From an uncultured Gemmatimonadaceae bacterium (GTDB lineage Bacteria; Gemmatimonadota; Gemmatimonadetes; Gemmatimonadales; Gemmatimonadaceae): DNA of 64,000 bases. Numbering within the stretch: position 1 is the first letter of the stretch; the number at the start of each line of letters is the position of its first letter. The stretch is from contig OY970320.1 in the NCBI GenBank assembly GCA_963716745.1, positions 1,527,865-1,591,864 of the forward strand, written 5' to 3'. Positions 914-62,555 of this stretch are shown here, in pieces. The translations under genes and the position numbers were made by a program. The notes beneath the pieces were generated by a model. That model was not told the DNA's origin. It saw nothing but the letters and a program-made list of their open reading frames with translations, and made no database searches.

Positions 914-1092
914 TGCGTGGCAAAGGTAATCGCGCGGGGTGACGCAAACAACGCCGCCGCGGCGCGGGCGTTCGCTTGCGGGGCGGCGGCCGCGCGCGGC
1001 ACTATACAGCACCATGAACATCTTCTTGATAACGGACGACGGATTCGCGCTGCGCATGCTCGTGGGCGCCGCGATCGCTGATCGTCATCGCC

Positions 1093-1876
1093 GTGATCGC
1101 GCTGCGGCGCGGCTCGCTCACCAAGTCGGGCGCCATCACCGCGGCGGCCGTGGGCACCGTGAGCGTGAGTGCGGGGTATGGATGGGGAGCGATGCTCATC
1201 GCGTTCTTCGTGAGCGCTACCGCGCTCACGCACTATCGCGAAGCGGAGCGGGCGCAGCGCACGGCGGGCGTGCTGGAGAAGGAGGGCGCGCGCGATGCGC
1301 TGCAGGTGCTGGCGAACGGGGCGTTGTTCGCCATCGCGGCGGCGGCGATCAAGGCACGATGGGGACTCAAGTACGGGACGATGGACACGCTGCCGGCGTG
1401 GACATGGCTCTGGACGGCGATCGGCGGCGGAGCGATCGCGACGGCGTGCGCGGACACGTGGAGCACCGAGATCGGCACGCTGTCCGATGCGCCGCCGCGG
1501 TCGATCGCGACGTTCAAGATCGTGCCGGCGGGAACGTCGGGGGGCGTAACAGCGCGAGGATCGGCGGCGGCGGTGGCGGGCGCGTGCTTCATGGGCGCTG
1601 TCGCGTGGGCGGTGCGCTGGCCGGCGATGCTCGCGGCGGCGACGGCGGCGGGGGGAATAATCGGCGCGTTCGCGGATTCTCTCATTGGGGCGACGCTGCA
1701 GGGACGGCGTCAGTGCCCCAAGTGCGGCGTCGCAACCGGAGCAGCTGGTGCACGATTGCGGCACGGAAACGGTGGCGGCGGGAGGTCTCGAGTGGCTCGA
1801 CAACGATCTGGTGAATCTGCTCAGCACCGGCTTGGGCGCCCTGGCGGCGGCCGCGATCGCTTCCGCGTTCGTCTGA
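1093..1876 (+). pseudogene. DUF92/TMEM19 (COG1836, VTE6 phytyl-phosphate-kinase-like) membrane protein, frame broken
   Basis: ORF 1093..1887 has LTKSGAITAAAVG and ADTWSTEIG. The conserved C-terminus EQLVHDCGTETVAAGGLEWLDNDLVNLLS lies in the +1 frame (ORF 1685..1876), with the join near 1735-1740. A second break is possible near 1078 (MLVGAAIA from the ATG at 1056). Confidence 0.6.
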
Positions 1877-1883
1877 GCGCGGC

Positions 1884-3332
1884 ATGACCGCGCTCGCCGC
1901 CGGTTCTGCGCCGCGCGTGCTCCTCGTGAGCACGAACCGCGAACGCCAGCCGATGCCGGTGGTACCGAACGGCATCGCCTGTGTCGCGGGCGCGCTCAAG
2001 GCAGCGGGGCACCAGACGCGCGTGCTCGATCTCGCGTTCTCGCGCGACCCGCACGCCGCGGCCGGCGCCGCCGCGCGCGAGTTCGCGCCCGACGTCATCG
2101 GTGTCTCGATGCGGAACATCGACAACAGCGATCTCATCGCGCTCCGGCATTACACGCCCGAGGCCACCGCGCTCCTCGCGACGCTGCGGGCCGCCGCGCC
2201 GCGCGCCCGCGTGATCGCGGGCGGTGCCGCGTTCGGGGTCGCGCCCGAGGCGCTCTTCGACACGCTTGGCGTCGACTACGCGGTGGCCGGCGATGGCGAG
2301 CGCGCCACGGTCGCGCTGCTCGACTCGCTCGCCGCCGGCCGCGCGCCCGGCGCGATCCCCGGCGTCGTACAGCGCGGCGACAGCGGGACGAAGCTCACGC
2401 CGCCCGGCGGCGACGCCGATCTCGATTCGCTGCCCGCGGCACACATGCACAAGTGGCTCGACCTCGCCGCGTACGAGCGCCGCGGCGGCACGGTGCCCAT
2501 CCAGACGAAGCGCGGCTGCGTGTTCAAGTGCATCTACTGCACATATCTCAACGTGGAAGGTTGGGGCTACCGCCTGCGCGACCCCGATCTCGTCGCGCTC
2601 GAGATGGAAGAGCTGCATCGCGAGGCCGGCGTCACGCACTTCGAGTTCGTGGATTCCACCTTCAATGCACCACCGCGCCACGCGATGGATGTGTGCGATG
2701 CGATCCTGCGCCGGCGCCTGCGCGTGCATCTCGACACCACGAACTTCACGCCCGCCACCGCGCCCGCGGAGCTGCTCGCGCTCATGCGTCGCGCCGGCTT
2801 CCGCTGGCTCGGCATCACCGCCGAGAGCGCGAGCGACTCGGTGCTCGAGCGGCTGCAGAAGGGTTTCGACGCCGCGCAGGTGCGCGCCGTCGCGGAGCGC
2901 GTGGAACAGGCGGGCATCGGCGTGTTGTGGATCTTCCTCGTGGGTGGGCCGGGCGAGACGCGCGAGACACTCGAAGAGACGCTACGCTTCGCCGCCTGGC
3001 GACTGGGCCGCGGCGACGCCGTGTACCTCACCGTCGGCCTGCGCATCTACCCGGGCACCACGCTCCACAATATCGCGCGGGACGAGGGCGTGGTCGCCAC
3101 CGGCGATCCACTCCTCGTGCCGCGATTCTACTTCACGAGTTCTCTCGATTTCGAGAGCACGGTCGCGCGCCTGCGCGCCTTCGCGTCCGCACATCCGCGC
3201 TTCATGTTCTCCGCCGACTCGCGTTCGCCGCTGCTGCCGCACCTCACGCGGCTCGCCGGCGTACTGCGGCTGCCCCGTCCGCATTGGCGCTACATGGGCT
3301 TGTTCCAGCGCATCGCGCGCGCCGTGTCATGA
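1884..3332 (+). CDS. B12-binding-domain radical SAM protein (lipid-cluster type)
   Basis: 482-aa ORF. The N-terminal cobalamin-binding-like region (RVLLVSTNRE...PDVIGVSMRN) is followed by the radical SAM motif CVFKCIYC (CxxxCxxC). Its stop overlaps the next start (ATGA at 3329-3332). Confidence 0.8.
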   Translation: MTALAAGSAPRVLLVSTNRERQPMPVVPNGIACVAGALKAAGHQTRVLDLAFSRDPHAAAGAAAREFAPDVIGVSMRNIDNSDLIALRHYTPEATALLATLRAAAPRARVIAGGAAFGVAPEALFDTLGVDYAVAGDGERATVALLDSLAAGRAPGAIPGVVQRGDSGTKLTPPGGDADLDSLPAAHMHKWLDLAAYERRGGTVPIQTKRGCVFKCIYCTYLNVEGWGYRLRDPDLVALEMEELHREAGVTHFEFVDSTFNAPPRHAMDVCDAILRRRLRVHLDTTNFTPATAPAELLALMRRAGFRWLGITAESASDSVLERLQKGFDAAQVRAVAERVEQAGIGVLWIFLVGGPGETRETLEETLRFAAWRLGRGDAVYLTVGLRIYPGTTLHNIARDEGVVATGDPLLVPRFYFTSSLDFESTVARLRAFASAHPRFMFSADSRSPLLPHLTRLAGVLRLPRPHWRYMGLFQRIARAVS

Positions 3333-4604
3333 CCGAACGCATCGATGTGATCGTCGTAGGCGGCGGACCGGCGGGCAGCTCCGCCGCCTGGCATCTCGCG
3401 CGCGGCGGCGCGCGCGTCGTGCTGCTCGATCGTGCCCGCTTCCCGCGCGACAAGCCGTGCGCCGAATACCTGAGCCCCGAAGCCTCGCGGATCCTCGAAT
3501 CGATGGGCGTGCTCGGCGCGTGCGAGCGCGCGGGCGCGGCGGCGCTGGCGGGCATGATCGTGCGCTCGCCCGCCGGCACGGTCGCGCAGGGCGCGTTCAC
3601 GGCGGCGCACGGATTCCGTCCGTTCCGCGACCGCGGACTCGGCCTGCGTCGCACCGCGCTCGACGCGCTCGTGCTCGGAGCAGCGCGGGATGCGGGCGTG
3701 AACGTGATCGAGGGGGAGCAGGTGACTGATGTGATCCGCGACGAGCGCGGCGTGGCGACCGGCGTGCGCACGCTCGAGAACGGCGCGGCGCGCGAGCGGC
3801 GCGCGGCGCTTGTCGTGGGCGCCGACGGCCTGCGTTCCGTGGTCGGGCGCCGGCTCGGCCTCACACGCTTCGCACGCGTGCCGCGCCGGCTCGCATTCGT
3901 GACGCACTACCGGGGCATACGCGGCATGTCAGGCTTCGGCGAGATGCACGTCGAGCGTGACGGCTACTTCGGCCTCGCCCCGGTGGAAGACGGATTGACC
4001 AACGTCGCGATCGTCGCGCCGGTGAGCGTCGCGCGCGCCGCGCGCGGACGCGCCGGACCGTTCTTCGATGCGTGGATCGCGTCGCGGCCGCAACTCGCCC
4101 CGCGGTTCGCCGGCGCGGAGCGCGTGGGCGCGGTGAGCGCCACCGGTCCGTTCGCGCAACGCGCGCGCCGCGCGTGGTCGCCGGGAGCGGCGCTAGTCGG
4201 GGATGCCGCCGATTTCTTCGACCCGTTCACCGGCGAGGGCATCTATGCCGCGTTGCTGGGCGGGGAGCTGTTGGCGCCGTTCGCGCTCGCGGCGCTCGGT
4301 GCATCCACCGCGAAGATCGCCGCGGAGTCGCTCGCCGGCTACGATCGCGCGCGGCGCCGCGCGTTCGGAGGGAAATGGGTGGTCGAGCGGTTCGTCGGAC
4401 TCGCGGTGGCGAGTCCCATCGCTCATGGACCGCATCACGCGATCGTTGGCGGCCTCACCCGACATGGCGGATCTCGTGGTGGGCGTCGGCGGCGACTTCG
4501 TACCGACGAGTGCCGTGCTTACGCCGCGGTTCCTCGCACGCTTGCTGTTCGGCATGCCTCGCGTCAGGCCGGCGGCCGTCCAGCCGCTCACCCGGGCGCG
4601 GTGA
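3329..4604 (+). CDS. FAD-dependent oxidoreductase, geranylgeranyl-reductase family (one frame break)
   Basis: MTERIDVIVVGGGPAGSSAA dinucleotide-binding motif; GADGLRSVVGRRLG; VGDAADFFDPFTGEGI. The C-terminus LAASPDMADLVVGVGGDFVPTSAVL is in the +1 frame (ORF 4203..4604), with the join near 4410-4420. Confidence 0.75.
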
Positions 4605-4606
4605 CC

Positions 4607-5080
4607 ATGATCGATCCCGATCTCTTCCGCAGCGTGCTCGGCCGCTTCACGAGCGGCGTGACCGTCGCCACGGCGCGCGATGCGTCCGGAGAGGACCACG
4701 GCATGACCGTGAGCTCGTTCTGCTCGCTGAGCCTCTCGCCGCCGCTCGTGCTCATCTGCGTGGAGCAGAGCACCGAATTACACCGCGTGCTCGCGACTGC
4801 GCGCGCGTTCGCGGTGAACGTGCTGGCCGACGACCAGGAGATGATCTCGCGGCGGTTCGCCGAGCCCGACGCGGGGCGTTTCGAGGGGCTCGCCTTCACG
4901 CGCGGCGTGAGCGGCTGCGCACTGCTCGCCGGCACGCTGGCGTCCATCGAGTGCACGGTGCGCGCCCGGCACCCGGAGGGCGACCATACGATCGTCGTCG
5001 GCGAGGTCACGGCCGCGGCAGCGCGCGATGGCCGGCCGCTGCTCTACTACCGCGGCGGCTATACCGTGATGGAGCGCTAG
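4607..5080 (+). CDS. Flavin reductase (HpaC/NADH:FMN oxidoreductase-like) family protein
   Basis: MIDPDLFRSVLGRFTSGVTVATA...GMTVSSFCSLSLSPPLVLICV...LLYYRGGY is a classic flavin reductase domain pattern. The ATG lies 2 nt after the upstream stop. Confidence 0.8.
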   Translation: MIDPDLFRSVLGRFTSGVTVATARDASGEDHGMTVSSFCSLSLSPPLVLICVEQSTELHRVLATARAFAVNVLADDQEMISRRFAEPDAGRFEGLAFTRGVSGCALLAGTLASIECTVRARHPEGDHTIVVGEVTAAAARDGRPLLYYRGGYTVMER

Positions 5081-5081
5081 C

Positions 5082-5790
5082 GTGGCGTCGCCCCTCACCC
5101 CGCGGCGCCGGCGCGGTATCGAGATCCTCGACGATCCGACGCTTGCCCCCGAGTTGCGATTGCGCTCGCTCGCGGATGTCGAGCCGCGCCAACGCGCTCT
5201 TCGGCGGCACGCGCGCGGTGCTGGCCGAGCTGGAGATCGCGCTCGACGCATCGCCGGCGCGCGAGGCGACGCTGCTCGATGTCGGTACCGGGCTGGGCGA
5301 TATCCCGCGGCGCGCCGTCGCGATGGCGCGCGCGCGTGGACGCACCCTGCACGCGGCCGGCGTCGAACTCGCCGAGCCGCTCGCGCGCGGCGCGCGTGGC
5401 GACGAGTTCCCGGTGGCCTGTGCCGACGCGCGCGCGCTCCCCTTCGCCGACCGGAGCTTCGATTTCGTCACCTGTTCGCAACTGCTGCATCACTTCGACG
5501 GCGACGCGGCGCTCGCGCTGCTGCGCGAGCTGCACCGCGTGGCGCGGCGTCTCGTGATCGTGAGCGAACTACGCCGCAGCTGGTTGGCGGCCGCAGGGAT
5601 ATGGCTCGTGTCGTACCCGCTGCGCTTCCATCCGGTGAGCCGGCACGACGGAGTCGTGTCGGTGTTCCGCGGTTTCCGCCGCGGCGAACTGCGCGAACTC
5701 GTGCGCGAAGCGGTGTCGCGCGATGCCGACGTCCGCGACCGGCTCGGCTTCCGCACCACGGCCGCCTGGATCCCGGTGGAGGTCGCGTGA
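5082..5790 (+). CDS. Class I SAM-dependent methyltransferase (one frame break)
   Basis: The GTG at 5082 gives ASPLTPRRRRGIEILDDPTLAPELRLRSLADV. The +1 frame then gives RANALFGGTRAVL...LLDVGTGLGDIPR...FDFVTCSQLLHHF. The join is near 5175-5185. Confidence 0.7.
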
Positions 5791-6332
5791 CCGAGCTCGA
5801 GCTGGCGCCTCCGTACGAATTGGGCGCGATGCCCGGCGGCCGTCTCATGGAGACCGTCGATGAACGCCTCGTACGCGCTCCCGTCGGCGCCATGTTCGAG
5901 CTCGCGCGCGACGTGGAGCGCTGGCCCGACCACCTCGCCCACTACCGCTGGGTGCGGTTCCACGAGCGCGCCGCCGACGGCGGTGGCATCGTCGAGATGG
6001 CGGCGTGGCGCCCGTTCGGCATTTTCGGCATCCGCACCTGGTGGATGTCGGAGATGCAGGTGGACGACGCGCGGCCGGCGATACGGTTCCGTCACATCAT
6101 GGGTGTCACCAAGCGGATGGACGTGGAATGGAGCTTCACGCCGGCCGACGGCGGGACGCACGTGCGCATCGTGCACGTATGGGACGGCCCGCGCTGGCCG
6201 CTGATCGGCGGCTTCGCCGCCACACGCGTGATCGGCCCCGTATTCGTGCACGGGATCGCCTCGCGCACGCTCGCCGGACTCGCGGCCGCGGCGGAACGCG
6301 GCTCGAATGGCACTCTCACGGGTAGTGACTGA
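5787..6332 (+). CDS. SRPBCC (START / polyketide cyclase-dehydrase-like) family protein
   Basis: The GTG at 5787 overlaps the upstream stop (GTGA). VRAPVGAMFELARDVERWPDHLAHY...VEWSFTPADGGTHVRIVHVW is typical of the SRPBCC fold. Confidence 0.65.
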   Translation: MTELELAPPYELGAMPGGRLMETVDERLVRAPVGAMFELARDVERWPDHLAHYRWVRFHERAADGGGIVEMAAWRPFGIFGIRTWWMSEMQVDDARPAIRFRHIMGVTKRMDVEWSFTPADGGTHVRIVHVWDGPRWPLIGGFAATRVIGPVFVHGIASRTLAGLAAAAERGSNGTLTGSD

Positions 6333-6333
6333 G

Positions 6334-7577
6334 ATGAAACGACGCGTCGCGATCACCGGCATCGGCGCCATCACGCCGATCGGCACCAGTTCCTCGGGAT
6401 TGTGGGACGGGCTTCGCGCGCAGCGCAGCGCCGTGCGGGAGCTCACGCGCTTCGATCCGTCGATCTTCCGCAGCCACATCGCGGCCGAGGTGAACGACTT
6501 CGTCCCCACGGATCATCTGGAAGCAGAAGCGCGCCAAGCGTCTCGACCGATTCGGGCAATTCAGCGTCGCCACCGCGCGCCTCGCGATCGAGGACTCCGG
6601 CATCGATCTCGCCGTCGAGGACAAGGAGCGCGATCGGCGCGATGATGGGCACGGCACTCGGCGGCGTGGGCTACGCCGAGGAACAGTGCGGCGTGTTCTA
6701 CCGCGGGAGCGTGAAGCGATGTGGATCCGATGCTCGCGCTCACGGTGTTCGGCGGCGCCTCGAGCTGCAACATGGCCATCGAGTTCGGCGTGCAAGGTCC
6801 GAACAGCACTAACGCGATGAGCTGCGCGAGCGGCACCATCGCGATCGGCGATGCTTTCCGGCAGATCCGCGATGGCTACGCCGACGTGATGATCGCGGGC
6901 GGCGCCGAAGCGCCGCTCTGGCCGCTCTGTTACGGCGCGTTCGCGCTCATCCGCGCCATGAGCACGCGCAACGACGATCCGTCGGCGCGCGTCGCGTCCG
7001 TTCGACAAGGATCGCGACGGGTTCGTGATGGGCGAGGGCGCGGCGGTGCTCATGCTCGAGGAGATGAGCGCGGGCGAAGGCGCGCGGCGCGCGCATCTAC
7101 GGCGAGGTGTGCGGCTACGGGATGAGCAACGACGCGTATCACATGACCGCACCGCGCCCCGATGGTTCGCAGGCGGCGCGCAGCATGCAGCGCGCGCTCG
7201 ACGACGCGGGCCTCGCCCCCACCGAGATCGGCTATGTGAACGCCCACGGCAGCTCCACACCGCTCAACGATTCCACCGAGACCCTCGCGATCCGCCGCGT
7301 GTTCGGCGACCACGCCGCCGCGCTGCCGGTGAGCGGCACCAAGGGCTATTACGGTCACGCGCTGGGTGCGAGCGGCGCGATCGAGGCCGCGATCTGCGCC
7401 CTCGCGATGGAGCAGGCGTGGCTGCCGCCCACGGTGAATCTCGATTCGCCGGATGCGGCATGCGCGCTGGATCACGTGCCGCGCGCGGGGCTGCAGGGCA
7501 GGCCCGAACACATCCTGTCGAACAGTTTCGGATTCGGCGGCATCAATGCCGCCCTGGTGCTCCGCCGCGCCGACTGA
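6334..7577 (+). pseudogene. Beta-ketoacyl-ACP synthase I/II (FabF/FabB-like), at least 5 frame breaks
   Basis: MKRRVAITGIGAITPIG start; KRAKRLDRFGQFSVATARLAIEDSG; IGAMMGTALGG; NSTNAMSCASGTIAIGDA (active-site Cys); RPFDKDRDGFVMGEGAAVL; YVNAHGSSTPLND; GHALGASGAIEA; SNSFGFGGINAALV. These pieces lie successively in frames 1,2,3,1,2,3, with joins near 6525, 6632, 6718, 6987 and 7078. Confidence 0.8.
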
Positions 7578-7595: not shown

Positions 7596-7601
7596 TATCT
7601 T
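7596..7601 (+). promoter_or_regulatory. -10-like hexamer TATCTT, 7 nt upstream of the ATG at 7609 (leaderless-type arrangement)
   Basis: cgaCTGACTtgtccggttcgcgcgcTATCTTactgggcATG. No Shine-Dalgarno sequence lies between the hexamer and the start. Confidence 0.3.
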
Positions 7602-7608
7602 ACTGGGC

Positions 7609-8118
7609 ATGCTGAATCGTTCGTTGGGCTGCGCCGCACTCGTGCTGGTCGCGCTCGCCGCGTGCAACGGGCCGGAACGCGGCCCCGACGCCGAGAAGAT
7701 CGTCTCGCATTTCGTGCGCGCCGATACGCTCGGCAGCTGGGACGAGGCGATCTCGCTCGTTGCGCCGTGCGACACGAGCGCAACCGCACCGCCGATCCGC
7801 GTCACGCGATCCGTGTCCGTGGGCGGCGCGCAACAAGGCAAAGGCAAGGACAGCATCCTCGTCGCCGCGTACTATCAGGTCGCGGGCACGGCGGTATCGG
7901 GCGAGACGCTGGGGAACGGCGTCACGGTGTGGCACTTTACCCCGGCCGCCGCCACCGACACTGTCACCTTCCGCCTCGGCCCCGACAGCTTCGGCCGCCT
8001 CATGATCGCCTGCGGCCCGCTTCCGGTTCATCGTGCGCCCATGGAGATGCCCGATCAAGTCACGCAGATGGACTCGGCATCGCGCGCCGCGTTCGACGCG
8101 GCGGTCGCAAGACGCTAG
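7609..8118 (+). CDS. Lipoprotein, function unknown
   Basis: ORF 7453..8118 trimmed to the ATG at 7609. MLNRSLGCAALVLVALAACNG is a signal peptide plus lipobox (LAAC). Confidence 0.6.
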   Translation: MLNRSLGCAALVLVALAACNGPERGPDAEKIVSHFVRADTLGSWDEAISLVAPCDTSATAPPIRVTRSVSVGGAQQGKGKDSILVAAYYQVAGTAVSGETLGNGVTVWHFTPAAATDTVTFRLGPDSFGRLMIACGPLPVHRAPMEMPDQVTQMDSASRAAFDAAVARR

Positions 8119-9967: not shown

Positions 9968-10061
9968 AACTACTTTGACAGGATTAACATGATCGACATC
10001 ATGATGGACAACGGGCGTCGTTCATCATGATGTCGATCATGTTAATCCTGTCAAAGCAGTT
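9968..10061. repeat. Family-1 palindromic element, copy A (about 38-bp arms, GACAGGATTAACATGAT core at the outer ends)
   Basis: cTTTGACAGGATTAACATGATCGACATCATGATG (9973-10006) pairs with CATCATGATGTCGATCATGTTAATCCTGTCAAAg (10023-10056). The stem extends with AACG/CGTT and flanking AAC/GTT. It lies between the ndh-like stop and the acs start. Confidence 0.85.
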
Positions 10062-10094
10062 GTCATGAATCTGGCGACGGCCCCGTCGCGCATC

Positions 10095-10100
10095 TAGAAT
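10095..10100 (+). promoter_or_regulatory. -10-like hexamer TAGAAT, 7 nt upstream of the ATG at 10108 of acs
   Basis: gcgcatcTAGAATgtgtcccATGtctgac. No SD sequence. This supports 10108 rather than 10099 as the start. Confidence 0.3.
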
Positions 10101-10107
10101 GTGTCCC

Positions 10108-12071
10108 ATGTCTGACGATATCGACGTCCTCCTCCACGAGCACCGGAAATTCCCGCCGCCCGCGAATTTCGCGAAAGGGGCGCACGTCAATTCCACCGCA
10201 ATGCACGAGCGCGCCGCGAAGGACTACGAAGCGTTCTGGGCGGAGATGGCGCATGAGCTCGAGTGGTCGAAGCCCTGGAGCAGAGTGCTCGAGTGGGATC
10301 CGCCGTGGGCGAAGTGGTTCACCGGCGGCACGCTGAACGCGAGCGTGAATTGTCTCGACCGCCATGTGCGCGGCGCGCGTCGCAACAAGGCGGCGCTCGT
10401 GTGGGAGGGCGAGCCGGGCGATACGCGGACGCTCACATACTGGGACCTGTACCGCGAGGTGAACAAGTTCGCGAACGTGCTCGACTCGCTGGGCGTGAAG
10501 CGCGGCGATCGCGTGGCGATCTACCTGCCGCTCATCCCCGAGGTCGTGATCGCGATGCTCGCGTGCGCGCGCATCGGCGCGCCGCACTCGGTGGTGTTCG
10601 GCGGCTTCTCGAGCGACAGTCTGCGCGACCGGATCAACGATGCGCAGTGCAAAGTGCTCGTCACCGCCGACGGCGGCTACCGGCGCGGCACGATGCTGCC
10701 GCTCAAGCGCAACGCCGATAAGGCGCTCGAGGAGACGCCGTCGATCAAGCACGTGGTAGTGGTGAAGCGCACCGGCGATGGCAGCGAGAGCCACGCCGAG
10801 ATGACGGAGGGGCGCGACCACTGGTGGCACCGCCTCATGAAGAACGCGGCGGCGTACCGCGAACCGGAGCAGATGGGCGCCGAAGATGTGCTCTACATCC
10901 TGTATACGAGCGGCACCACCGGGATCGCCCAAGGGCATCGTGCACACCACCGGCGGCTACATGACCGTTGCGCACGCCACCACGAAACTGGTGTTCGACC
11001 TGAAGGAGGACGACGTCTACTGGTGCACCGCCGATGTCGGCTGGGTCACCGGACACACATATCTCGTGTACGGGCCGCTCTCCAACGGCGCGACGTGTGT
11101 GATGTACGAAGGCGCCCCCGACTGGCCCGAGAAGGATCGCTTCTGGGAGATCTGCGAGAAGTTCGGCGTCACGATCTTCTACACCGCGCCCACCGCGATC
11201 CGCGCGTTCATGAAGTGGGGGAAGGAGCACGTGCTCAAGCACGATCTCTCCCGCCTCCGTCTGCTCGGCTCCGTGGGCGAGCCGATCAATCCGGAAGCGT
11301 GGATCTGGTACCACGAGAACGTCGGCAAGGAGCGCTGCCCCATCGTGGACACGTGGTGGCAGACGGAGACCGGCAGCATCCTGATATCGCCGCTCCCGGG
11401 CGTGACGCAGGACCAAACCCGGCAGCGCGACCATGCCGTTCCCGGGGATCTTCGCCGATCTGCTCGACGCGAACGCGAGACCCATCGCGGTGGGCGGCGG
11501 CTTGCTCGCGATCACCAAGCCGTGGCCTTCGATGCTTCGCACGATCTGGGGCGACCCCGACCGCTACGTGCAGACGTACTTCTCGAAGTGGAAGGACCGC
11601 CCCGATCTGTACTTCCCTGGCGACGGCGCGAAGCGCGACGACGAGGGCTATTTCTGGATCCTGGGCCGCGTGGATGATGTGCTCAACGTCGCAGGCCATC
11701 GCATCGGCACCATGGAGGTGGAGAGCGCGCTCGTCTCGCATCCCGCGGTGGCCGAGGCGGCGGTGGTGGGCAAAGCGCATGAGCTGAAGGGACAGGCGAT
11801 CGCGGCGTTCGTGACGCTGCGCGAAGGGCAGAGAGCCTCGCCCGCCCTGCGCGACGACCTGCGCGAGCACGTCGCGCAGAAGATCGGCGCGCTCGCCCGC
11901 CCCGACGACATCCTCTTCTCGGCCGACCTGCCGAAGACGCGCTCCGGAAAGATCATGCGCCGGCTGCTGCGCGACATCGCCGAAGGACGCGCGCTGGGCG
12001 ACGTGACGACCCTCGCCGATCCCGCGGTCGTCGCGAAGCTGAAGGATCAGTACGAGGCGACGGAGTCCTGA
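10108..12071 (+). pseudogene. acs: Acetyl-CoA synthetase (AMP-forming), two frame breaks
   Basis: Three consecutive frames carry full-length Acs: ...[10 protein letters not shown] | [13 protein letters not shown]...[18 protein letters not shown] | [12 protein letters not shown]...[15 protein letters not shown]. The joins are at about 10924 and about 11415. An alternative start is at 10099. Confidence 0.9.
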
Positions 12072-12164: not shown

Positions 12165-12576
12165 GAGATCGCAGATCCGCGATGGACGTCATGAGAATCC
12201 CGAGCATGATGCACGCCGACGTCACGCACCAGATGCAGATCGCGTGGATCACGAAGAGTTCGAGGTACGTGAGCCACATCGAGAACAGCACGCTCCAACC
12301 CGAGATCGCGACCATCATGTAGGAGATCGCGCGCGACTCGGAGCCGCGCTCGGAGAGTCCCGCGATCGCGAGCACGAAGAGCACGACGTATGTCGCGAGC
12401 CCCCATGCCGCCACCGGCAAGCCGAGGAAGGTGGCCCAGCGGCTCGTGTTCACCGTCTCGCACTCGCCCACCGAGCAGGCGAGCTCGCCGATCACCCCCA
12501 CCTTGTAGAGCGTGAGGTAGAGCGCGACGAACGCGCCCGCCAGCGCGAGGACGGCGATGACCTGCCGCGTCCTCAC
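12151..12576 (-). CDS. Vitamin K epoxide reductase (VKOR) family membrane protein
   Basis: 141 aa with 4 TM segments. It has loop Cys residues (ACSVGEC) and CIWC in the last helix. It is 4-nt coupled to the upstream DsbA-like gene. Confidence 0.75.
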   Translation of the reverse strand: MRTRQVIAVLALAGAFVALYLTLYKVGVIGELACSVGECETVNTSRWATFLGLPVAAWGLATYVVLFVLAIAGLSERGSESRAISYMMVAISGWSVLFSMWLTYLELFVIHAICIWCVTSACIMLGILMTSIADLRSQRTA

Positions 12577-13337
12577 GGCTTCTTGGCGGTCTTCGGTCCT
12601 GCGGGTGCCGCGGCGGGCGGCTGGGTCGCGGCGCTGTCCACGTACGATTTGAACTCATCGTAGCCGATCGCGCCCGCCACCTTCCTCCGCCCGATCACGA
12701 ACGTGGGCGTCTGCGAGACGCCAATGCGGTCGCCTTCCTTGCGGTTGCCGTAGATGCGCGTGAGGTGCTGCTGTTCCTCGAAGCACTTCTTCCAGTCGGC
12801 CACGTTCAGACCGATCTGCTTGGCGTACTCGGCGAAGAACTTGCCCGGGTTGTTCGTCGCCTCGGTGGACCACTCGGGCTGATTGAAGAAGAGCGCGTCA
12901 TGCATCTCCCAGAATTTCTTCTGGTCGTCGGCGCACGCCGCCGCGATGGATGCGCGCAGCGAGTTCTGGTGCTGCGGCAGCGGGAAATCGTAGTAGTGGT
13001 AGCTCACGAGACCGGCCTGCACGAGGCGGCGGCGCACGTCGGGCTCGGTGACGAGCGAGAACTGCCCGCACGCCGGACACTCGTAGTCCGCGAACTCCAG
13101 CACTTGCACGGGCGCGTTGGGATTGCCGAGCAGATAGCCCTGCGCCGCAGCCGCGGTGACGTCCACTTCCTGTACGGGCGCCGATTTGGGGCGGGAAGCG
13201 ACCGAGAGCAGCCATGCGCCGCCGGCGATGATGACGATCGCGATCAGGATCCAGAAGCCGCGCGAATTCTTCGCCGGCTTCTTCTTCTTCACCACTCCCG
13301 GTCGCTGTCCCTTTCCCTCTTTTCGTCCGGCTGCCAT
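12573..13337 (-). CDS. DsbA-family thiol:disulfide oxidoreductase (membrane-anchored)
   Basis: N-terminal TM segment (FWILIAIVIIAGGAWLL) and thioredoxin-fold active site YECPACGQF. Confidence 0.8.
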   Translation of the reverse strand: MAAGRKEGKGQRPGVVKKKKPAKNSRGFWILIAIVIIAGGAWLLSVASRPKSAPVQEVDVTAAAAQGYLLGNPNAPVQVLEFADYECPACGQFSLVTEPDVRRRLVQAGLVSYHYYDFPLPQHQNSLRASIAAACADDQKKFWEMHDALFFNQPEWSTEATNNPGKFFAEYAKQIGLNVADWKKCFEEQQHLTRIYGNRKEGDRIGVSQTPTFVIGRRKVAGAIGYDEFKSYVDSAATQPPAAAPAGPKTAKKP

Positions 13338-17941: not shown

Positions 17942-20578
17942 TCGCTCCCTTGGCGTTCCCTCGCACGACGGCCTGTACGAGTCGCGATTCGTCGAAGTAC
18001 TTCCTCGCGAGTTCTCGCATTGCGCCCGCCGTCACCGCCGCGCACGCGCGCATCGTGCTCGTCGAGCTCGCGAGTCCGCGTCCCATCATCCATGCGTCGA
18101 CGATCTCCCCGAGCACGCTGCCGCCGCTCTGCTGGCGGATCGCGTGCGTGCCGATCGCGTATTCCTGCGCCAGCTCCAGTTCGCGCGCGGTGACCTCGCC
18201 CTCGCGCAGCCGCGCGAACTCGCGCAGGAGTCCGCGGCGCGCCGTCTCCTCCTGCGCTGGCGACGTCGCGATGTAACTCACGAACATGCCCGCGCGACGG
18301 CGCTCGCTCGAGTGCGCGTGCACGGTGTAGGCGAGCGACTTCTTGTCGCGCAGCTCCTCGAAGAACCGGCCGCCGAGTCCGCTCGCGACACCGGCGATCA
18401 TCTCGGCCGCCCAGCGATCGTCGTCCCACCGGTCGGGCGCGGGGAACGCGAGCGCGAGTGCCGTCTGCGCCTTGTCGCGGTCCTCGCTCACCGACACCGG
18501 CCGCGCGCCGGCCACGCCGGTGCGTCCAACGCACCCGGCCGGCCCGCGCCGAGGCCTGCGAAGAGCACCGCGGCGCGCGCGGCCGCGTCGTCGGCGTCCA
18601 CGTCGCCCACGATCGCGATCGCCGTCGCACCGCTGATCACGCGCACGCGGTGCCAGGCACGCAGCCGCCCTGCATCCAGCGCGGCGAGTGTGTGCTCATA
18701 GCCGCTCGAAGGAATGCCGTATGGGTGCCCCGCGAACGCCGCCGAGACGAGCAGGCGCATCGGCCAGCGGTACATGTCATCGCGCATCAGCGCGAGGTCG
18801 GCGATCGCCACGGCGCGCTCGGTCTCCAGCGCGCCCGCCGGGAAATTCGCGTTCAGCACGACATCGGCGAGCAGCGCCATCGCCGCCGCGCCATGCTGCG
18901 ATGGCACGGAGATCGACCAGCCCAGTTGCTCGGCGCCGGCATGCGCGCTCACGCTCCCGCCGAGCGATTCCGCCTCTTCCGCGATCTGCTCGGCGCGGCG
19001 CTTGGCCGTGCCCTTCACCGCCGTGCGCGTCATGAGCGACGTGAGCCCCGCGCTCTCTTCGTTCTCATCGCTGGCGCCGCCCGCCGCGAATACGCCCACG
19101 TGCATGAGCGGCGATCCCGCGCGCCGCTTCACGAGCACTGGCACGCCCGCCGCCGTGCGATAGATGCGCACACCCGCCTCCTCGCGGTCGAGCGCGACCG
19201 GCGAGAGCACGAGCGCGGGCGACTCCGGCGCCGGCGACGGCGCGACGAAGGGCTGGGCGCGCCCTCCTTCCAGGATCGCGCGCAGCGCACCGGTGTCCGC
19301 GGCGACGGGCGGCGAATTCCGCGGCCGGTAGAACAGCACGCCCGCGCGCTCCGCCGTGAGGTGCCGGCGCATCGCCGCGGTCACTTGCTCGCCGTCGGCG
19401 CCAAGCAGTCCCGCGAGGTATGCACCGCCAAGCGTCCAGGCGCCGAGCGCTTCCCACCCGGCGAGATAGGTCGCCTGGCCCTCCATGGTCTCCAGCCGGC
19501 GCAGCCACTGCGATTCGATCACGCGGCGCGCGCGCTCAAGCTCGGCCGGGTGCACGCCCACATCGCGCATTGCCGCGAGCTGCGCCCACGCTTCGGCGGT
19601 CGCATCCGCGGCCGATGAGGGTGGCCCCTCCGCGTGGATGGTGAACACGCCGAGCTGGGTCGGCGTGTAGTTCGACGCTCCGATGGAGGCGACGAGCCGG
19701 CGCTCGCGCACCGCGCGATAGAGTCGCGACGCGCGGCCCGCGCCGAGCATCGTCGCGGCGAGATCGAGCAGCACCGTGTCGGCGTCGAGCGTGCCCGGCG
19801 TTCGCCAGCCGATCGCGATCTGCGTCTGCGCGATGTCGCCTGCCAGTTCGTGGAAACGGAGTCCGTCGTGCTCCGGCTCCGCCGGTCCGGCCGCATGCTC
19901 CACCGGAGCATCTTTGAGCGTGCCGTACAGGCGCTCCACTTCGCGCACCGCGATCTTCAGGTCAATGTCGCCCACGATCGAAAGGATCGTATTGCCGGGG
20001 CGGTAGTGATTGCGGTAGAAGCGCGTGACATCCGCGCGCGTGAACCGCCGCAGCATGTCCTCGCGGCCGATGCGCCAGCGTCGCATCCGATGCCGGTCGT
20101 GCAGCAACGCGTACAGCGACTCGACCGCCACGGCGGAGGGATTGTCCTCCTTCCGTTTGGCTTCCTGGATGATGACCGCGAGCTCGCGCGCGAGCTCATC
20201 CGCATCGATGAGCGAATTCGCGAACGCATCGAATTGGATCTCGAGTCCGCGCACGAACGCCGCGGACGGGAGTACGGTGTAATAGCTGGTCTGGTCGTAG
20301 ATCGTGCCGGCGTTCAGGTAGCCGCCGGCGGCCTTCGTCGCACGCGGGATCTCGCCCACGCCGCGCGTGGGCGTCCCCTTGAAGTACATGTGCTCGAGCA
20401 CGTGGGAGATGCCCTGCACGTCGTCCGTCTCATCGAAGTAGCCGGCTCTCACGTGCGTGACGATCGCGACGACCGGCGCACTGGCGTCGCGGCGGAGGAG
20501 AACGGTGAGCCCGTTCTCCAACCGCACGCGCCTGACGGAATCGACTGGAAGGAGCGGCGAAGCGCCGCCGCCGCTCAC
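17913..20578 (-). CDS. Tandem M16 (pitrilysin-family) zinc peptidase, two fused M16 units (one frame break)
   Basis: The GTG at 20578 overlaps the upstream stop. HVLEHMYFKGT is the HxxEH zinc motif. The second unit starts near AGVRIYRTAAGVPVLV. The last 200 aa are in another frame (ORF 17913..18515), with the join near 18490-18515. Confidence 0.8.
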
Positions 20579-41911: not shown

Positions 41912-41961
41912 CCCTTTCCGCCGTGAGATATTTTTTCTCTCGCGAATCTCGAGTGGACGCG

Positions 41962-41967
41962 TAAGTT
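41962..41967 (+). promoter_or_regulatory. -10-like hexamer TAAGTT, 7 nt upstream of the ATG at 41975
   Basis: gcgTAAGTTtccgttcATG. This is nearly identical to the arrangement at 24507 (cgcTAAGTTtgcagtcATG). Confidence 0.3.
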
Positions 41968-41974
41968 TCCGTTC

Positions 41975-43430
41975 ATGAAGACTCCCAGTCAGCCGATGTG
42001 GGCGGTCGCACCCGATGCGCCGATGGATGCGCGCACGACGCTCATCCAGCTGTACTGGGCGGCGATCCGATCGGCGGCGCCGGCGCCCGCGTTGCGCGCG
42101 GCGCTCGACAAGATCCCGCCGGAGAAGGAGCGCCGCCGCGTCTGGATCTTCGCGGTGGGCAAGGCCGCGAACCCGATGGCGATCGCCGCGGTGGAATGGC
42201 TCAAGGAGCACGGCGCCGAGCCGGCCGGTGGCGTCATCGTCGCGCCGCGACAGGTGCCCACGCCGCATGCGAGTCTCGAGATGATCGTCGGTGACCATCC
42301 GCAGCCCGGGCTTCGTTCGCTCACGGCCGCGCGCATGATCGAGAATGACCGCGGCCAGAGTGCGCCCCGAGGACGACGCGTGGGTGCTGCTCTCCGGCGG
42401 CTCCACGAGCCTCATAGCCGCGCCGGACGCGGCGCTCAAACCAGAAGAGATGGTGCAGCTCTTCGAGTTGCTGCACGGCTCCGGTCTCGACATCGCGACG
42501 ATGAATCTCATCCGCAAACGCTTCACGCGATGGGGCGCGGGCCGTCTCGCCGCCGCGCTCAAGGCGCACAAGGTGCGCAATTTCATCATCTCGGATGTCG
42601 TGGGCGATGACCTCGCGGCGATCGGCTCCGGTCCGTGCGTCCCGGACCCGAGCACGGCGAGCCAGGTACGTTCGATCCTCGTGGCATACAAGCTTTGGGA
42701 CCTCGTGCCGATCACGCTGCGCCGCTACCTGCACGCGGTCGAACGCGATCCGGGTCTCGAGACGCCGAAGGCCGGCGATCCCGTGTTCGAGAACGTCGAG
42801 CGCCGCATCATCGCGAGCAACCGCACCGCACTCGACGCGATCGCATCGAAGGCGAAGGAGCTCGGCTACGATCCGCGCATCATGAGCACCACGCTCTCCG
42901 GCGACGCGGCTTCCGCCGGCAAGCGCGTGGCCGCGTCGCTGGCCGGCACCTGCGGGTCCGCGACGCCCACCATCGCCGGCCGCGCCGGCCGTGCGTGCCT
43001 CATCTGGGGCGGCGAGACCACGGTGGCCCTTCGCGAAGGACCGCACGGCGCTGGCGGCCGTTGTCAGGAGCTCGCGCTCTCCGCCGCGCGCGAGCTCGCG
43101 CAGGTGAAGAGCGCGCGCGGCTCCACGCTCCTCGCGTGCGGCACCAATGGCCGCGACGGCGCCACCGACGCCGCCGGCGCGGTGGTGAATCGCGAGACAT
43201 GGAACGACATCGCGCGCGCCGGACGCGATCCCGAGAAGGATCTCGCCGGACACGATTCATACCCGTCGCTCGACGCGGCCGGCGCCCTGCTCCGCACCGA
43301 TCTCACCTCCACGAACGTCATGGATGTCGTGATCGGCGTCTGCGGCCCGCCCACCGCCGAGATGATGGAGCGGAAGACACCCGGTGCGCTCGCCCGGATC
43401 TCGGGTAGCTTTAGGCGGATCACCCAGTAA
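41975..43430 (+). CDS. Glycerate 2-kinase / hydroxypyruvate reductase-like (DUF4147 + MOFRL), one frame break
   Basis: VWIFAVGKAANPMA and VGDHPQPG are in the first frame. The +1 frame carries WVLLSGGSTSL, ISDVVGDDLAAIGSGP, LIWGGETTV, GGRCQELALSAA, GTNGRDGATDAAGA. The join is near 42345. Confidence 0.75.
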
Positions 43431-61761: not shown

Positions 61762-62547
61762 ATGCGAGTCGTATTCGTAGTCGTCGCTACTATGCTCACG
61801 GCCTCGACGAAGCTCCAGTCGCAGTGCCCGACCCTGCCCTCGCCCATCGTCACGGCGTATGAGCAGCATTCCATGGACCGCCCGCAGCCGCCGGTCGTGA
61901 AACCCGCACCGGGCGGCGCGCCGGTCGCGCCGCCGAGCGATGCGATCGTGCTCTTCGATGGGAAAGACCTCTCGCAATGGGCGAGCGGCGACAGCGCGGG
62001 CAAGCCCGCGAAGTGGAAGGTGAGAGACGGCTACATGGAAGTGGTCGCGCACACGGGCGACATCCAGACCAAGCAGAGCTTCGGCGATGTGCAGCTCCAC
62101 GTCGAGTGGCGTACGCCATTGCCCGTGAGCGGCGAGGGGCAGGAGCGCGGCAATAGCGGCGTCTATCTCATGGCCGCGTTCGAGGTGCAGGTGCTCGACT
62201 CGTACGACAACCCGACCTACGCCGACGGCGCCGCGGGCTCCGTGTTCGGCCAGTATCCGCCCCTCGTGAACGCGAGCCGCAAGCCCGGCGAGTGGCAGAC
62301 GTACGACATCATCTTCCACCGTCCGCGATTCAATCAGGATGGCACGCTGCAGTGCGCCGCGCGCGTCACGGTGATCCAGAATGGCGTGGTGGTGCAGAGC
62401 GACGCCGTGCTCACCGGGCCCACCGCCTACAAGCGGCGTCCGCCGTACGCGCCAATGCCCGACAAGCTGCCGATCCTCCTTCAGGATCACAGCTTCCCGG
62501 TGCGCTACCGGAACATCTGGGTGCGCCAGCTGCCCGACGCGAACTGA
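61762..62547 (+). CDS. DUF1080 (3-keto-disaccharide hydrolase / LamG-like) domain protein, exported
   Basis: ATG at 61762 (MRVVFVVVATMLTAS). LFDGKDLSQW, WKVRDGYMEV, QLHVEWR, GNSGVYL, YEVQVLD-type motif (FEVQVLDSYDN), RNIWVRQL. Confidence 0.75.
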   Translation: MRVVFVVVATMLTASTKLQSQCPTLPSPIVTAYEQHSMDRPQPPVVKPAPGGAPVAPPSDAIVLFDGKDLSQWASGDSAGKPAKWKVRDGYMEVVAHTGDIQTKQSFGDVQLHVEWRTPLPVSGEGQERGNSGVYLMAAFEVQVLDSYDNPTYADGAAGSVFGQYPPLVNASRKPGEWQTYDIIFHRPRFNQDGTLQCAARVTVIQNGVVVQSDAVLTGPTAYKRRPPYAPMPDKLPILLQDHSFPVRYRNIWVRQLPDAN

Positions 62548-62555
62548 GCGCCGCG

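Follow-up and report, generated by a model that had tools for sequence, protein, structure and literature searches.

The likely product of the operon described here is a small polyketide-type lipid, which its enzymes would both assemble and tailor. Judging from its enzymes and from the company that they keep in other phyla, we tentatively read it as a possible pathway for a methylated alkyl-phenolic or quinone-type (membrane) lipid, rather than one that modifies membrane-spanning lipid tails.

A conserved seven-gene operon

Pfam and NCBIfam searches of the window (the whole 64,000-nucleotide stretch analysed, from an uncultured Gemmatimonadaceae bacterium) identified seven genes on the + strand at about 1014–7577, each matching the family named in the original prediction. 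They are given here with their divergently transcribed neighbour:

296–916, − strand: hyp207, conserved hypothetical protein, 207 aa, divergently transcribed (tblastn, 66% identity to the L002 orthologue)
1014–1876, + strand: DUF92 (COG1836/TIGR00297-like) integral membrane protein (Pfam DUF92, 2.9e-51)
1884–3332, + strand: B12-binding radical SAM enzyme, an intact protein of 482 aa and the hallmark of the operon (PF02310 and PF04055)
3329–4604, + strand: GGR-type FAD flavoprotein, about 425 aa (FAD_binding_3, 9.4e-25; GG-red-SF)
4607–5080, + strand: HpaC/StyB-type NAD(P)H-flavin reductase, intact (Flavin_Reduct, 6.7e-43)
5082–5790, + strand: class I SAM methyltransferase (MT), PRK06202-like, UbiE/MenG-related (Methyltransf_11/25; NF004851, 113 bits)
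5787–6332, + strand: SRPBCC protein akin to type II PKS aromatase/cyclases, intact (Polyketide_cyc, 7.8e-14)
6334–7577, + strand: FabF-type beta-ketoacyl-ACP synthase II (KS; ketoacyl-synt N and C domains)

The co-directional structure proposed earlier was upheld, and every reported junction was recovered when read directly from the sequence: an ATGA overlap between the radical SAM and flavoprotein genes (3329–3332), TGA-CC-ATG between flavoprotein and flavin reductase (4602–4609; the median spacing here across loci is −28 nt, so that the two genes overlap), TAG-C-GTG between flavin reductase and MT (5078–5084), a GTGA overlap between MT and SRPBCC (5787–5790), TGA-G-ATG between SRPBCC and KS (6330–6336), and the KS stop codon at 7575–7577. 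The six genes from the radical SAM enzyme to the KS are shown to be translationally coupled, with DUF92 upstream of them. The DUF92 gene itself had been correctly predicted, but its coordinates are most likely from an ATG at 1014 to 1876 instead of 1093–1887. As originally stated, the cluster holds no ACP gene, and there is no room for one because the genes abut one another.

All seven genes are found in unchanged order, with overlapping or short junctions, in 37 of the 40 Gemmatimonadota loci with enough flank, and 30 of these 40 carry a fully intact operon (L002 is an example), so neither a gene order conserved in no relative nor a decayed array lacking any intact orthologous cluster, both raised with the original prediction, describes this locus. 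DUF92 precedes the radical SAM gene in 56 Gemmatimonadota loci (median gap 40 nt), a lipoprotein gene sits between the two in 18 loci, and among the loci examined DUF92 is absent from all versions outside the phylum. Because its linkage to the cluster is confined to Gemmatimonadota, DUF92 may be a syntenic neighbour instead of a pathway member. The protein encoded by hyp207, which lies upstream in nearly all Gemmatimonadota loci and has a weak V4R match (E 0.005, below threshold), is a syntenic neighbour whose position does not imply membership of the pathway.

In the window the operon carries at least eight 1-nt indels over 6.5 kb. DUF92 is split between two frames by one certain frameshift (about 1730–1773, from tblastn with the L002 and L001 orthologues), and a second is probable at about 1078; a frameshift at about 4416 makes the flavoprotein ORF read into the flavin reductase gene; MT is split between two frames at about 5180 (tblastn); and five 1-nt insertions in the KS gene (about 6525, 6631, 6714, 6986 and 7063, from DNA alignment with L002 and L001) leave its N and C domains in separate frames. 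Such a density of breaks, above all in the KS, could speak for a decayed pseudogene array in the source organism, which we find scarcely credible: 1-nt frameshifts of this kind occur elsewhere in the window in acetyl-CoA synthetase, glycerate kinase, GMC oxidoreductase and M16 peptidase, all frame segments have high GC3, 47–78% amino-acid identity to intact orthologues and no internal stops, and L001, a second long-read-style assembly, has indels in the same gene, but different ones. Since the housekeeping genes of the window are broken in the same manner, the breaks are assembly (sequencing) errors spread across the whole window, not decay. We take the operon to be intact and vertically inherited in Gemmatimonadaceae.

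Synteny alone is weak evidence for a functional unit, as an M24 peptidase and hyp207 upstream are equally syntenic in Gemmatimonadaceae, and the intact L002 KS orthologue scores above the equivalog cutoff of TIGR03150 fabF (519 against 493.75). Both points would favour a housekeeping fabF and unrelated neighbours, joined only by within-family synteny. This is nevertheless very improbable, since radical SAM–MT–SRPBCC–KS is found again in unrelated lineages (L062, L089), there too as an operon of its own whose junctions overlap and in different surroundings, the KS gene overlaps the radical SAM gene in L090, the two lie side by side in L061, and acpP is adjacent in no case.

The radical SAM clade and its exchangeable condensing enzymes

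The radical SAM enzyme has an invariant CxxxCxxC motif (C212/C216/C219), and its orthologues across Gemmatimonadaceae are 66–92% identical. The best-scoring curated NCBIfam family is TIGR04072 (Kuste2803-type, 'lipid biosynthesis B12-binding/radical SAM protein'), aligned over the full length at 310 bits, where the cutoff is 360. Because four other lineages, an anammox genome among them, have relatives that likewise fall below this cutoff (305–346), the scores place the enzyme in an undescribed sister clade of TIGR04072; the predicted tie to this ladderane-associated family thus stood as relatedness but failed as membership. The enzyme reaches the cutoff of no family and so does not fall in one of known non-lipid function. 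Clusters of the TIGR04072 type likewise include FabF-like ketosynthases and flavoproteins, and we agree that no product has been assigned to them; their further partners are ACP, FabZ and phytoene-desaturase-like genes, whereas the clade described here is joined by MT, SRPBCC and KS, or by a type III PKS. The BzaD model gives 218 bits, and the nearest solved structure is TsrM (6wte). TsrM and BzaD, the nearest characterised relatives, methylate aromatic carbons.

Outside Gemmatimonadota the core of the clade consists of the radical SAM enzyme, a methyltransferase and a condensing enzyme, the last being either a FabF-type KS, in some cases with an ARO/CYC-like SRPBCC, or a single type III PKS; a frequent addition is a flavoprotein hydroxylase/reductase or a MenA-like prenyltransferase. 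Among the loci examined across phyla, six have a UbiE-like MT with the radical SAM enzyme, and a condensing enzyme accompanies it almost always. The arrangement in L089 and L062, where the SRPBCC is ARO/CYC-like, is radical SAM–MT–SRPBCC–KS; in L061 and L090 it is KS–radical SAM, with no SRPBCC detected in L061 and L090 too short to judge its presence; and in L087/88 it is type III PKS–MT–radical SAM. Another fifteen loci carry radical SAM–type III PKS; they belong to anammox bacteria, Nitrospirota, Thermodesulfovibrionales, Desulfobulbaceae and two MAGs that are classified less closely. The cultured Desulfuromonas versatilis has UbiH-type FAD hydroxylase–MT–radical SAM–type III PKS. The UbiA proteins adjoining the radical SAM enzyme in L063 and L084 are MenA-like, and in L063 a true GGR is also present. 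We interpret KS plus SRPBCC and the type III PKS as non-orthologous replacements at the condensing position. The neighbour-joining tree of the radical SAM enzyme is star-like, so the history of partner switching is not readable from it, and this would count against the aromatic reading.

The clade keeps company with type III PKS, ARO/CYC-like SRPBCC, UbiE-like MT, flavoproteins of the UbiH or GGR type and MenA-like prenyltransferases. This is a context of head-group or aromatic polyketide chemistry, and it lends no support to the earlier suggestion that tails of membrane-spanning or branched lipids are methylated or joined by C-C coupling. In that suggestion, which we regard as unlikely, the radical SAM enzyme, MT and GGR-type reductase would work within FAS II, giving acyl-ACP or the tails of membrane lipids methyl branches or C-C links, while a dedicated FabF paralogue elongates the modified chain and the SRPBCC is a lipid-binding helper. 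The FabF-like KS would fit, and so would the nearest named family, TIGR04072, which occurs in FAS-type ladderane clusters (PMC2649909; PMC13459092), a setting that also speaks against aromatic chemistry. Left unexplained are the repeated swap of KS and SRPBCC for a type III PKS and the UbiH-type hydroxylase, MenA-like prenyltransferases and UbiE-like MT of the sister clusters. Further, KR, DH, ER and ACP genes are all missing from the operon, its radical SAM enzyme resembles none of those known to act on lipid tails (Tes, Mss, Gms, Grs and Gmm, reviewed in PMC13459092), and HpnJ and HpnR reach only 78–101 bits against it in NCBIfam.

Putative tailoring enzymes

A profile of 26 SRPBCC orthologues matched BexL best among PDB structures (6.3e-13), followed by WhiE ORFVI, ZhuI and TcmN (3e-7 to 8e-6) and more weakly by the Coq10-like 1t17 (8e-4); by this measure the nearest group is the type II PKS aromatase/cyclases, whose W-x-S motif is conserved. 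Arg69 is the essential catalytic residue of TcmN-type cyclases. Here Met replaces it, which would weigh against the aromatic reading and for acyl-tail tailoring, and the operon differs from type II PKS in lacking the KS-alpha/CLF/ACP minimal set. Its single KS, with the FabF score given above, resembles an ordinary elongating KAS II more than a KS-alpha/CLF pair, and no ACP, CLF or thioesterase gene is present in the operon, both apparent points against aromatic chemistry. MT matches UbiE/MenG/MpqE models; the same family adjoins the radical SAM gene in L062, L089, L087/88 and L073, while the MT of L093 shares only ~26% identity with it (E 2e-11).

The flavoprotein shares the fold of the geranylgeranyl reductase family (archaeal DGGGPL reductase, ChlP/BchP, MenJ), and PDB alignments show that it keeps both the 'TGEGI' motif and the conserved Cys close to the flavin ('KPC'), has Leu in place of the halogenase catalytic Lys and lacks WxWxIP. 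It differs from that family in a degenerate YxWxFP (GYxGxxP/D), in a GG-red-SF score just below the cutoff (154.9 against 158.8, L002 orthologue) and in its pairing with a dedicated HpaC-type flavin reductase (1e-37 to 1e-41 to the HsaB, HpaC and FerA models). Such partners are typical of two-component monooxygenases and halogenases. Motifs of GGR rather than UbiH type appear to fit a C=C reductase, which again favours acyl-tail tailoring over aromatic chemistry.

The near-cutoff GG-red-SF score would also favour a prenyl-quinone or isoprenoid pathway, in which the MenJ/GGR-type reductase, served by the flavin reductase, would saturate the prenyl chain, methylation of the quinone ring would fall to the UbiE/MenG-like MT and the B12-radical SAM enzyme, the SRPBCC would act as a Coq10-like quinone chaperone and DUF92 would recycle prenyl phosphate. 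The DUF92 family includes the prenyl-phosphate kinase VTE6, the 1t17 match and the L063 neighbours would agree, and the Leptospirillum methyl-plastoquinone cluster has a putative cobalamin radical SAM methyltransferase (PMC11874023; LFE_2124, likened by description). We consider this distinctly unlikely, as it does not explain the ever-present KS or type III PKS, the L002 flavoprotein reaches only 83 of the 700 bits that the MenJ model requires, the SRPBCC is nearer to ARO/CYC than to Coq10, and the DUF92 linkage is confined to one phylum. The Gemmatimonadaceae operon also contains no prenyltransferase, which counts against the alkyl-phenolic or quinone-type reading.

Proposed pathway and precedents

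Aromatic chemistry, as part of the alkyl-phenolic or quinone-type reading that we prefer, appears to be supported by the SRPBCC profile, the MT matches, the MenA-like neighbours in L063 and L084 and the kinship with TsrM and BzaD. In such a pathway the KS would take an acyl-ACP from fatty-acid synthesis and extend it with malonyl-ACP, and the SRPBCC would fold, dehydrate or cyclise the beta-keto intermediate, both jobs falling to one type III PKS in the sister clusters. MT would place a methyl group on a nucleophilic O or C, and the cobalamin radical SAM enzyme on a carbon beyond ordinary methyltransferases, whether at a ring C-H or in the side chain. Reduced flavin for the GGR-type flavoprotein would come from the flavin reductase at the expense of NAD(P)H, and the flavoprotein would saturate a side-chain C=C or hydroxylate the ring; DUF92 may supply a prenyl side chain or be a mere neighbour.

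Two known systems share parts of this logic. The srsABC operons of Streptomyces griseus (type III PKS, MT and monooxygenase) produce methylated, hydroxylated alkylresorcinols (PMC6669644) and likewise combine a ring-forming condensing enzyme, a methyltransferase and a flavoprotein. They differ in having an ICMT-type methyltransferase (SrsB) where the operon MT is UbiE-like, and no radical SAM enzyme; Gemmatimonadaceae have FabF-type KS and SRPBCC for the type III PKS and a GGR-type flavoprotein with a separate flavin reductase. The D. versatilis cluster has the srsABC layout plus the radical SAM enzyme. In the Leptospirillum cluster (mpqA UbiA, mpqC, LFE_2124, mpqE) a B12-radical SAM enzyme lies by a UbiE-like MT and UbiA in a benzoquinone pathway; its ring comes from 4-hydroxybenzoate without a condensing enzyme, and LFE_2124 is a putative methyltransferase, likened here by cluster context. 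L063 and L084 resemble this cluster in pairing the radical SAM enzyme with a MenA-like UbiA.

Layout of the operon and its frame breaks

Third-position GC and ORF tiling mark a coding run at ~1014–7577 on the + strand of the window, whose G+C content is ~70%. Profile searches find in it the families DUF92, B12-binding plus Radical_SAM, FAD_binding_3/GG-red-SF, Flavin_Reduct, class I methyltransferase (PRK06202-like), Polyketide_cyc (SRPBCC) and beta-ketoacyl synthase (N and C domains). The seven genes and domain calls of the original prediction are thereby borne out, with every family that it named confirmed, and the gene junctions it reported can all be read in the sequence:

3329–3332, + strand, ATGA: radical SAM gene/FAD gene
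4602–4609, + strand, TGA-CC-ATG: FAD gene/flavin reductase gene
5078–5084, + strand, TAG-C-GTG: flavin reductase gene/methyltransferase gene
5787–5790, + strand, GTGA: methyltransferase gene/SRPBCC gene
6330–6336, + strand, TGA-G-ATG: SRPBCC gene/ketosynthase gene

An ACP gene was said to be missing, and indeed there is no space for one between the operon genes. A scan for promoters and terminators within the operon and at both its ends gave nothing usable. Directly after the ketosynthase gene lies a small predicted lipoprotein (7597–8118, + strand; signal peptide ending in LAAC) with no family match; unannotated ORFs of similar size occupy this position in L001, a second long-read-style assembly, and are absent in L002, the intact Gemmatimonadaceae reference locus. 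Because L002 lacks such an ORF there, the lipoprotein is probably outside the operon. A VKOR (vitamin K epoxide reductase family) gene adjoins a DsbA-like thioredoxin gene 5 kb downstream of the operon (12172–12591 and 12621–13295, - strand), and the two form a quinone-linked disulfide-bond system.

Comparison with the intact L002 proteins places the following breaks in the operon:

~1730–1773, probably also ~1078, + strand: DUF92 gene
~4416, + strand: FAD gene
~5180, + strand: methyltransferase gene
five 1-nt insertions, + strand: ketosynthase gene

The true start of the DUF92 gene is likely the ATG at 1014 and its true stop 1876. The FAD gene is broken at ~4416 and therefore one ORF appears to span this gene and the flavin reductase gene. 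All the frame segments of the operon have high GC3, show 47–78% identity to the intact orthologue and contain no internal stops. The same ketosynthase also carries indels in L001, but different ones, and genes of the window outside the operon are split as well:

10114–12065: acetyl-CoA synthetase, three frames
17949–20545: M16 peptidase, two frames
41939–43376: glycerate kinase, two frames
62544–63985: GMC oxidoreductase, three frames

Because non-operon genes are split too, the segments are conserved without stops and the L001 indels differ, the breaks in the operon are, judging by the sequence, indel errors of the assembly, and the operon is predicted to be functional in the organism. On the question raised earlier, whether the breaks are real, the comparison points to errors, as the housekeeping genes of the window break alike. 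Single-nucleotide indels are frequent in this assembly, so that ORF-based readings of it need care.

Conservation in Gemmatimonadota

Close homologues of the radical SAM protein number in the hundreds, and the named ones are nearly all from Gemmatimonadaceae. Hits in genomes come to at least 588. The seven L002 proteins were mapped onto 82 loci, comprising 80 from a scan with one genome per species plus L001 and L002. Gemmatimonadota account for 63 of the 82, with sufficient flank for testing in 40; all seven genes are present in 37 of these 40, in constant order, so the conservation of gene order that had been proposed as a check is found. Median junction gaps in the Gemmatimonadota loci range from -28 to +40 nt. 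Intact orthologous clusters are common, as every gene gives a single near-full-length match in 30 of the 40 testable loci. A pseudogene array is rejected on account of these common intact orthologues together with the like frameshifts in housekeeping genes of the window.

Upstream, the gene of an M24 peptidase and that of a hypothetical protein of 207 aa, the latter on the opposite strand, are equally syntenic, while the genes downstream of the ketosynthase vary among loci, and therefore the unit ends at the ketosynthase. Gemmatimonadaceae belong to the bacteria that are common in soil. Since nearly all sampled members of the family have the operon at one and the same place on the chromosome, its product is suggested to be a core physiological one and not a sporadic secondary metabolite. 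The 207-aa protein (296–916, - strand) is divergently transcribed relative to the operon and conserved family-wide, and its L002 orthologue has a below-threshold match to the V4R domain (E = 0.005). Since small hydrophobic molecules are the ligands of V4R domains, the protein may have a sensory or regulatory role.

DUF92 itself, of the COG1836 family to which the phytyl-phosphate kinase VTE6 belongs, passes its Pfam membership test with 174.7 bits (cutoff 27.5) and scores 101–107 on TIGR00297, where the cutoff is 205.85. A lipoprotein gene of ~150 aa separates DUF92 from the radical SAM gene in 18 Gemmatimonadaceae loci (for example L006:9500–9990 and L013:9520–9957), and DUF92 is absent beside the radical SAM gene in every relative examined outside Gemmatimonadota. 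For both these reasons the membership of DUF92 in the pathway is uncertain. The inserted lipoprotein matches Lipocalin_4 weakly, and its signal peptide contains a lipobox.

Two of the loci call for separate mention. L003 (JADGRS010000289.1), filed as a Burkholderiales MAG, is 78–96% identical to the L002 cluster (radical SAM protein 92%, 207-aa protein 96%) and is probably a binning contaminant. In L052 (CAVYNV010000003.1, Gemmatimonadales) the radical SAM and methyltransferase genes alone are seen, with genes for a multicopper oxidase, chromate transporter and histidine kinase around them; its assembly is error-prone, and the locus may be an artefact of this or a reduced form of the operon.

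A radical SAM clade next to the ladderane family

The radical SAM protein contains an N-terminal B12-binding domain (PF02310, 1.3e-16) and a radical SAM core (PF04055, 2.8e-23), with the CxxxCxxC motif at C212, C216 and C219 invariant among 24 diverse homologues. With both these features it is a predicted class B (cobalamin-dependent) radical SAM enzyme. Cobalamin radical SAM enzymes act on unreactive carbons and, to our knowledge, few of those that modify lipids have assigned products. The nearest solved structure is that of TsrM, a tryptophan C2-methyltransferase.

The best family is TIGR04072 (‘lipid biosynthesis B12-binding/radical SAM protein’), on which the protein scores 310.4 bits, under the curated NCBIfam equivalog cutoff of 360 bits; the second best, BzaD, follows at 218 bits. 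The protein is thus not placed in a known family unrelated to lipids. Its relatives from Jettenia, Nitrospirota, Armatimonadota and KSB1 reach 305–346 bits on TIGR04072, all under the cutoff as well. Membership is ruled out by score, so of the link to this family proposed earlier the relatedness stands and the membership (310 vs 360 bits) falls; the clade is best placed as a sister of the ladderane-cluster family. TIGR04072 genes are typically surrounded by ACP, FabZ, FabF paralogues and phytoene-desaturase-like genes (PMC2649909, PMC13459092). In contrast, the present operon shares only the FabF-type ketosynthase with this context and has no ACP, FabZ or phytoene-desaturase-like genes.

When 50%-identity representatives were searched exhaustively, 1008 lay below 1e-30, among them a single Gemmatimonadaceae cluster at 73% identity, after which the next full-length relatives are at ~38–47%. 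A rough neighbour-joining tree of the radical SAM proteins is star-like, with ketosynthase, type III PKS and UbiA contexts interleaved. The Leptospirillum radical SAM protein LFE_2124 was not found among the homologues of P0123.

The orphan status of the cluster is upheld in the literature that we searched: the operon is not described in work on DUF92, Gemmatimonas, type III PKS or alkylresorcinol with radical SAM, and neither is a radical SAM–type III PKS pair. Soil BGC surveys report ‘ladderane’ clusters in Verrucomicrobia and do not mention the present operon. Radical SAM enzymes that modify lipids were reviewed in 2026; the review covers Tes, Mss, Gms, GrsA/B, Gmm, Cds, HpnH/J/P/R, Jaw5 and an unassigned ladderane enzyme, and describes no operon resembling this one (PMC13459092).

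Flavoprotein, SRPBCC protein and ketosynthase

In PDB the flavoprotein matches halogenases best and next the geranylgeranyl reductase (GGR) of Thermoplasma. At the motifs of CndH/CmlS/PltA-type halogenases, the catalytic Lys is replaced by Leu and WxWxIP by GYAGFAD or GYFGLAP; a halogenase formed by the FAD protein and flavin reductase is ruled out by these losses. Two marks of the GGR family, a conserved Cys close to FAD and the xTGEGI motif, are present in the flavoprotein: KPCAEYL aligns with the Cys of the Thermoplasma enzyme and DPFTGEGI with DPITGGGI. On GG-red-SF (TIGR02032, cutoff 158.8 bits) the L002 orthologue, which is intact, comes close with 154.9, and the frameshifted copy of the window has 145. 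By its motifs the flavoprotein is thus a putative GGR-type enzyme and not a halogenase, with a role in either reduction or hydroxylation. Since its gene overlaps that of the HpaC-type flavin reductase, a two-component system is suggested.

When a profile of 26 SRPBCC orthologues was matched to PDB, the best matches were type II PKS aromatase/cyclases (ARO/CYC): BexL (6.3e-13), WhiE (3.2e-7), ZhuI (1.8e-6) and TcmN (4.6e-6), the last three spanning an E range of 3e-7 to 8e-6 for this profile; Coq10-like 1t17 matched more weakly (8e-4). The consensus is W-x-S-E-M, a nearly invariant Met occupying the position of the catalytic Arg of ARO/CYC (W-x-S-x-R; R69 in TcmN). The ketosynthase has its Cys-His-His set intact, with motifs legible although the window copy is frameshifted. 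Its L002 orthologue (519.2) and the ketosynthases of L062 (539) and L089 (524) all pass the TIGR03150 FabF equivalog cutoff of 493.75, and acpP was never beside the ketosynthase in any locus seen.

Because the ketosynthase resembles a run-of-the-mill FabF, the SRPBCC protein lacks the cyclase Arg, the Gemmatimonadaceae flavoprotein resembles a reductase and no product has been assigned, two rivals of the reading favoured below stay live. Tailoring of acyl tails, as in the original prediction, appears unlikely to us, and modification of a prenyl quinone less likely still.

Gene context outside the phylum

Homologous loci from other lineages have the following gene orders:

L089 (lineage not assigned): radical SAM–methyltransferase–SRPBCC–ketosynthase; self-contained, junctions overlapping, flanks unrelated
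L062 (Armatimonadota): radical SAM–methyltransferase–SRPBCC–ketosynthase
L061 (Planctomycetia): ketosynthase–radical SAM–FAD protein
L090: ketosynthase–radical SAM, with a 4-nt overlap
15 loci (Scalindua, Jettenia, other anammox bacteria, Nitrospirota, Thermodesulfovibrionales, Desulfobulbaceae, two less closely classified MAGs): radical SAM, then type III PKS
L087/L088: type III PKS–methyltransferase–radical SAM, true GGR 2 kb away
L093:6973–11709 (Desulfuromonas versatilis, cultured; AP024355.1, ~1.597–1.616 Mb): UbiH-type FAD hydroxylase–methyltransferase–radical SAM–type III PKS
L063 (KSB1): MenA-like UbiA–GGR–radical SAM
L084: radical SAM–MenA-like UbiA–glycosyltransferase–cupredoxin

The type III PKS is immediately 3' of the radical SAM gene in all 15 loci except L070, where greedy ORF calling is ambiguous; in most of the radical SAM–type III PKS loci L065, L068 and L071–L082 the radical SAM gene is at ~10001–11430. 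A 75-aa ORF upstream of the Armatimonadota radical SAM gene was rejected as an ACP, having no Pfam match.

The recurrent core is a B12 radical SAM enzyme with a condensing enzyme, joined in six examined loci by a UbiE-like methyltransferase. The condensing part is either a FabF-type ketosynthase (with an ARO/CYC-like SRPBCC protein in L062 and L089) or a lone type III PKS, a single enzyme that both condenses and cyclises. The methyltransferase is of the same PRK06202/UbiE-like family in the scanned ketosynthase and type III PKS contexts, and those of D. versatilis and L073 are only ~26–28% identical to that of Gemmatimonadaceae. Genes that often accompany the core encode a GGR-type flavoprotein or a ring hydroxylase, and also an aromatic prenyltransferase of MenA-like type. 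This comparative context does not point to lipid tails that are branched or span the membrane.

Similar patterns are those of the srsABC-type operons for phenolic lipids (PMC6669644) and, in gene content, of the Leptospirillum methyl-plastoquinone cluster, where a cobalamin radical SAM methyltransferase adjoins a UbiE-like methyltransferase and UbiA (PMC11874023). Because of these likenesses we tentatively favour, at somewhat less than an even chance, a product that is a methylated polyketide lipid of alkyl-phenolic or quinone type, in which the radical SAM enzyme would methylate a carbon out of reach of SAM methyltransferases. It is possible, if rather doubtful, that the clade is the sign of a widespread pathway, so far overlooked, to C-methylated phenolic or quinone lipids of polyketide origin, in which a type III PKS and a FabF-type ketosynthase with an ARO/CYC-like SRPBCC protein would be interchangeable for the ring step. 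Such a pathway would range over Gemmatimonadota, Armatimonadota, Planctomycetota including anammox bacteria, Nitrospirota, Desulfobacterota and KSB1. If true, this would be a new route by which fatty-acid machinery gives a lipid its aromatic head group, and the compound made might be a new redox or membrane-protective lipid, core to Gemmatimonadaceae. The comparison offers a concrete hypothesis, that of one radical SAM–methyltransferase pair joined to either ketosynthase plus SRPBCC or type III PKS, and tractable systems in the stand-alone four-gene operon and the cultured host Desulfuromonas versatilis, which could reveal a new class of methylated lipids or quinones and possible biomarkers.
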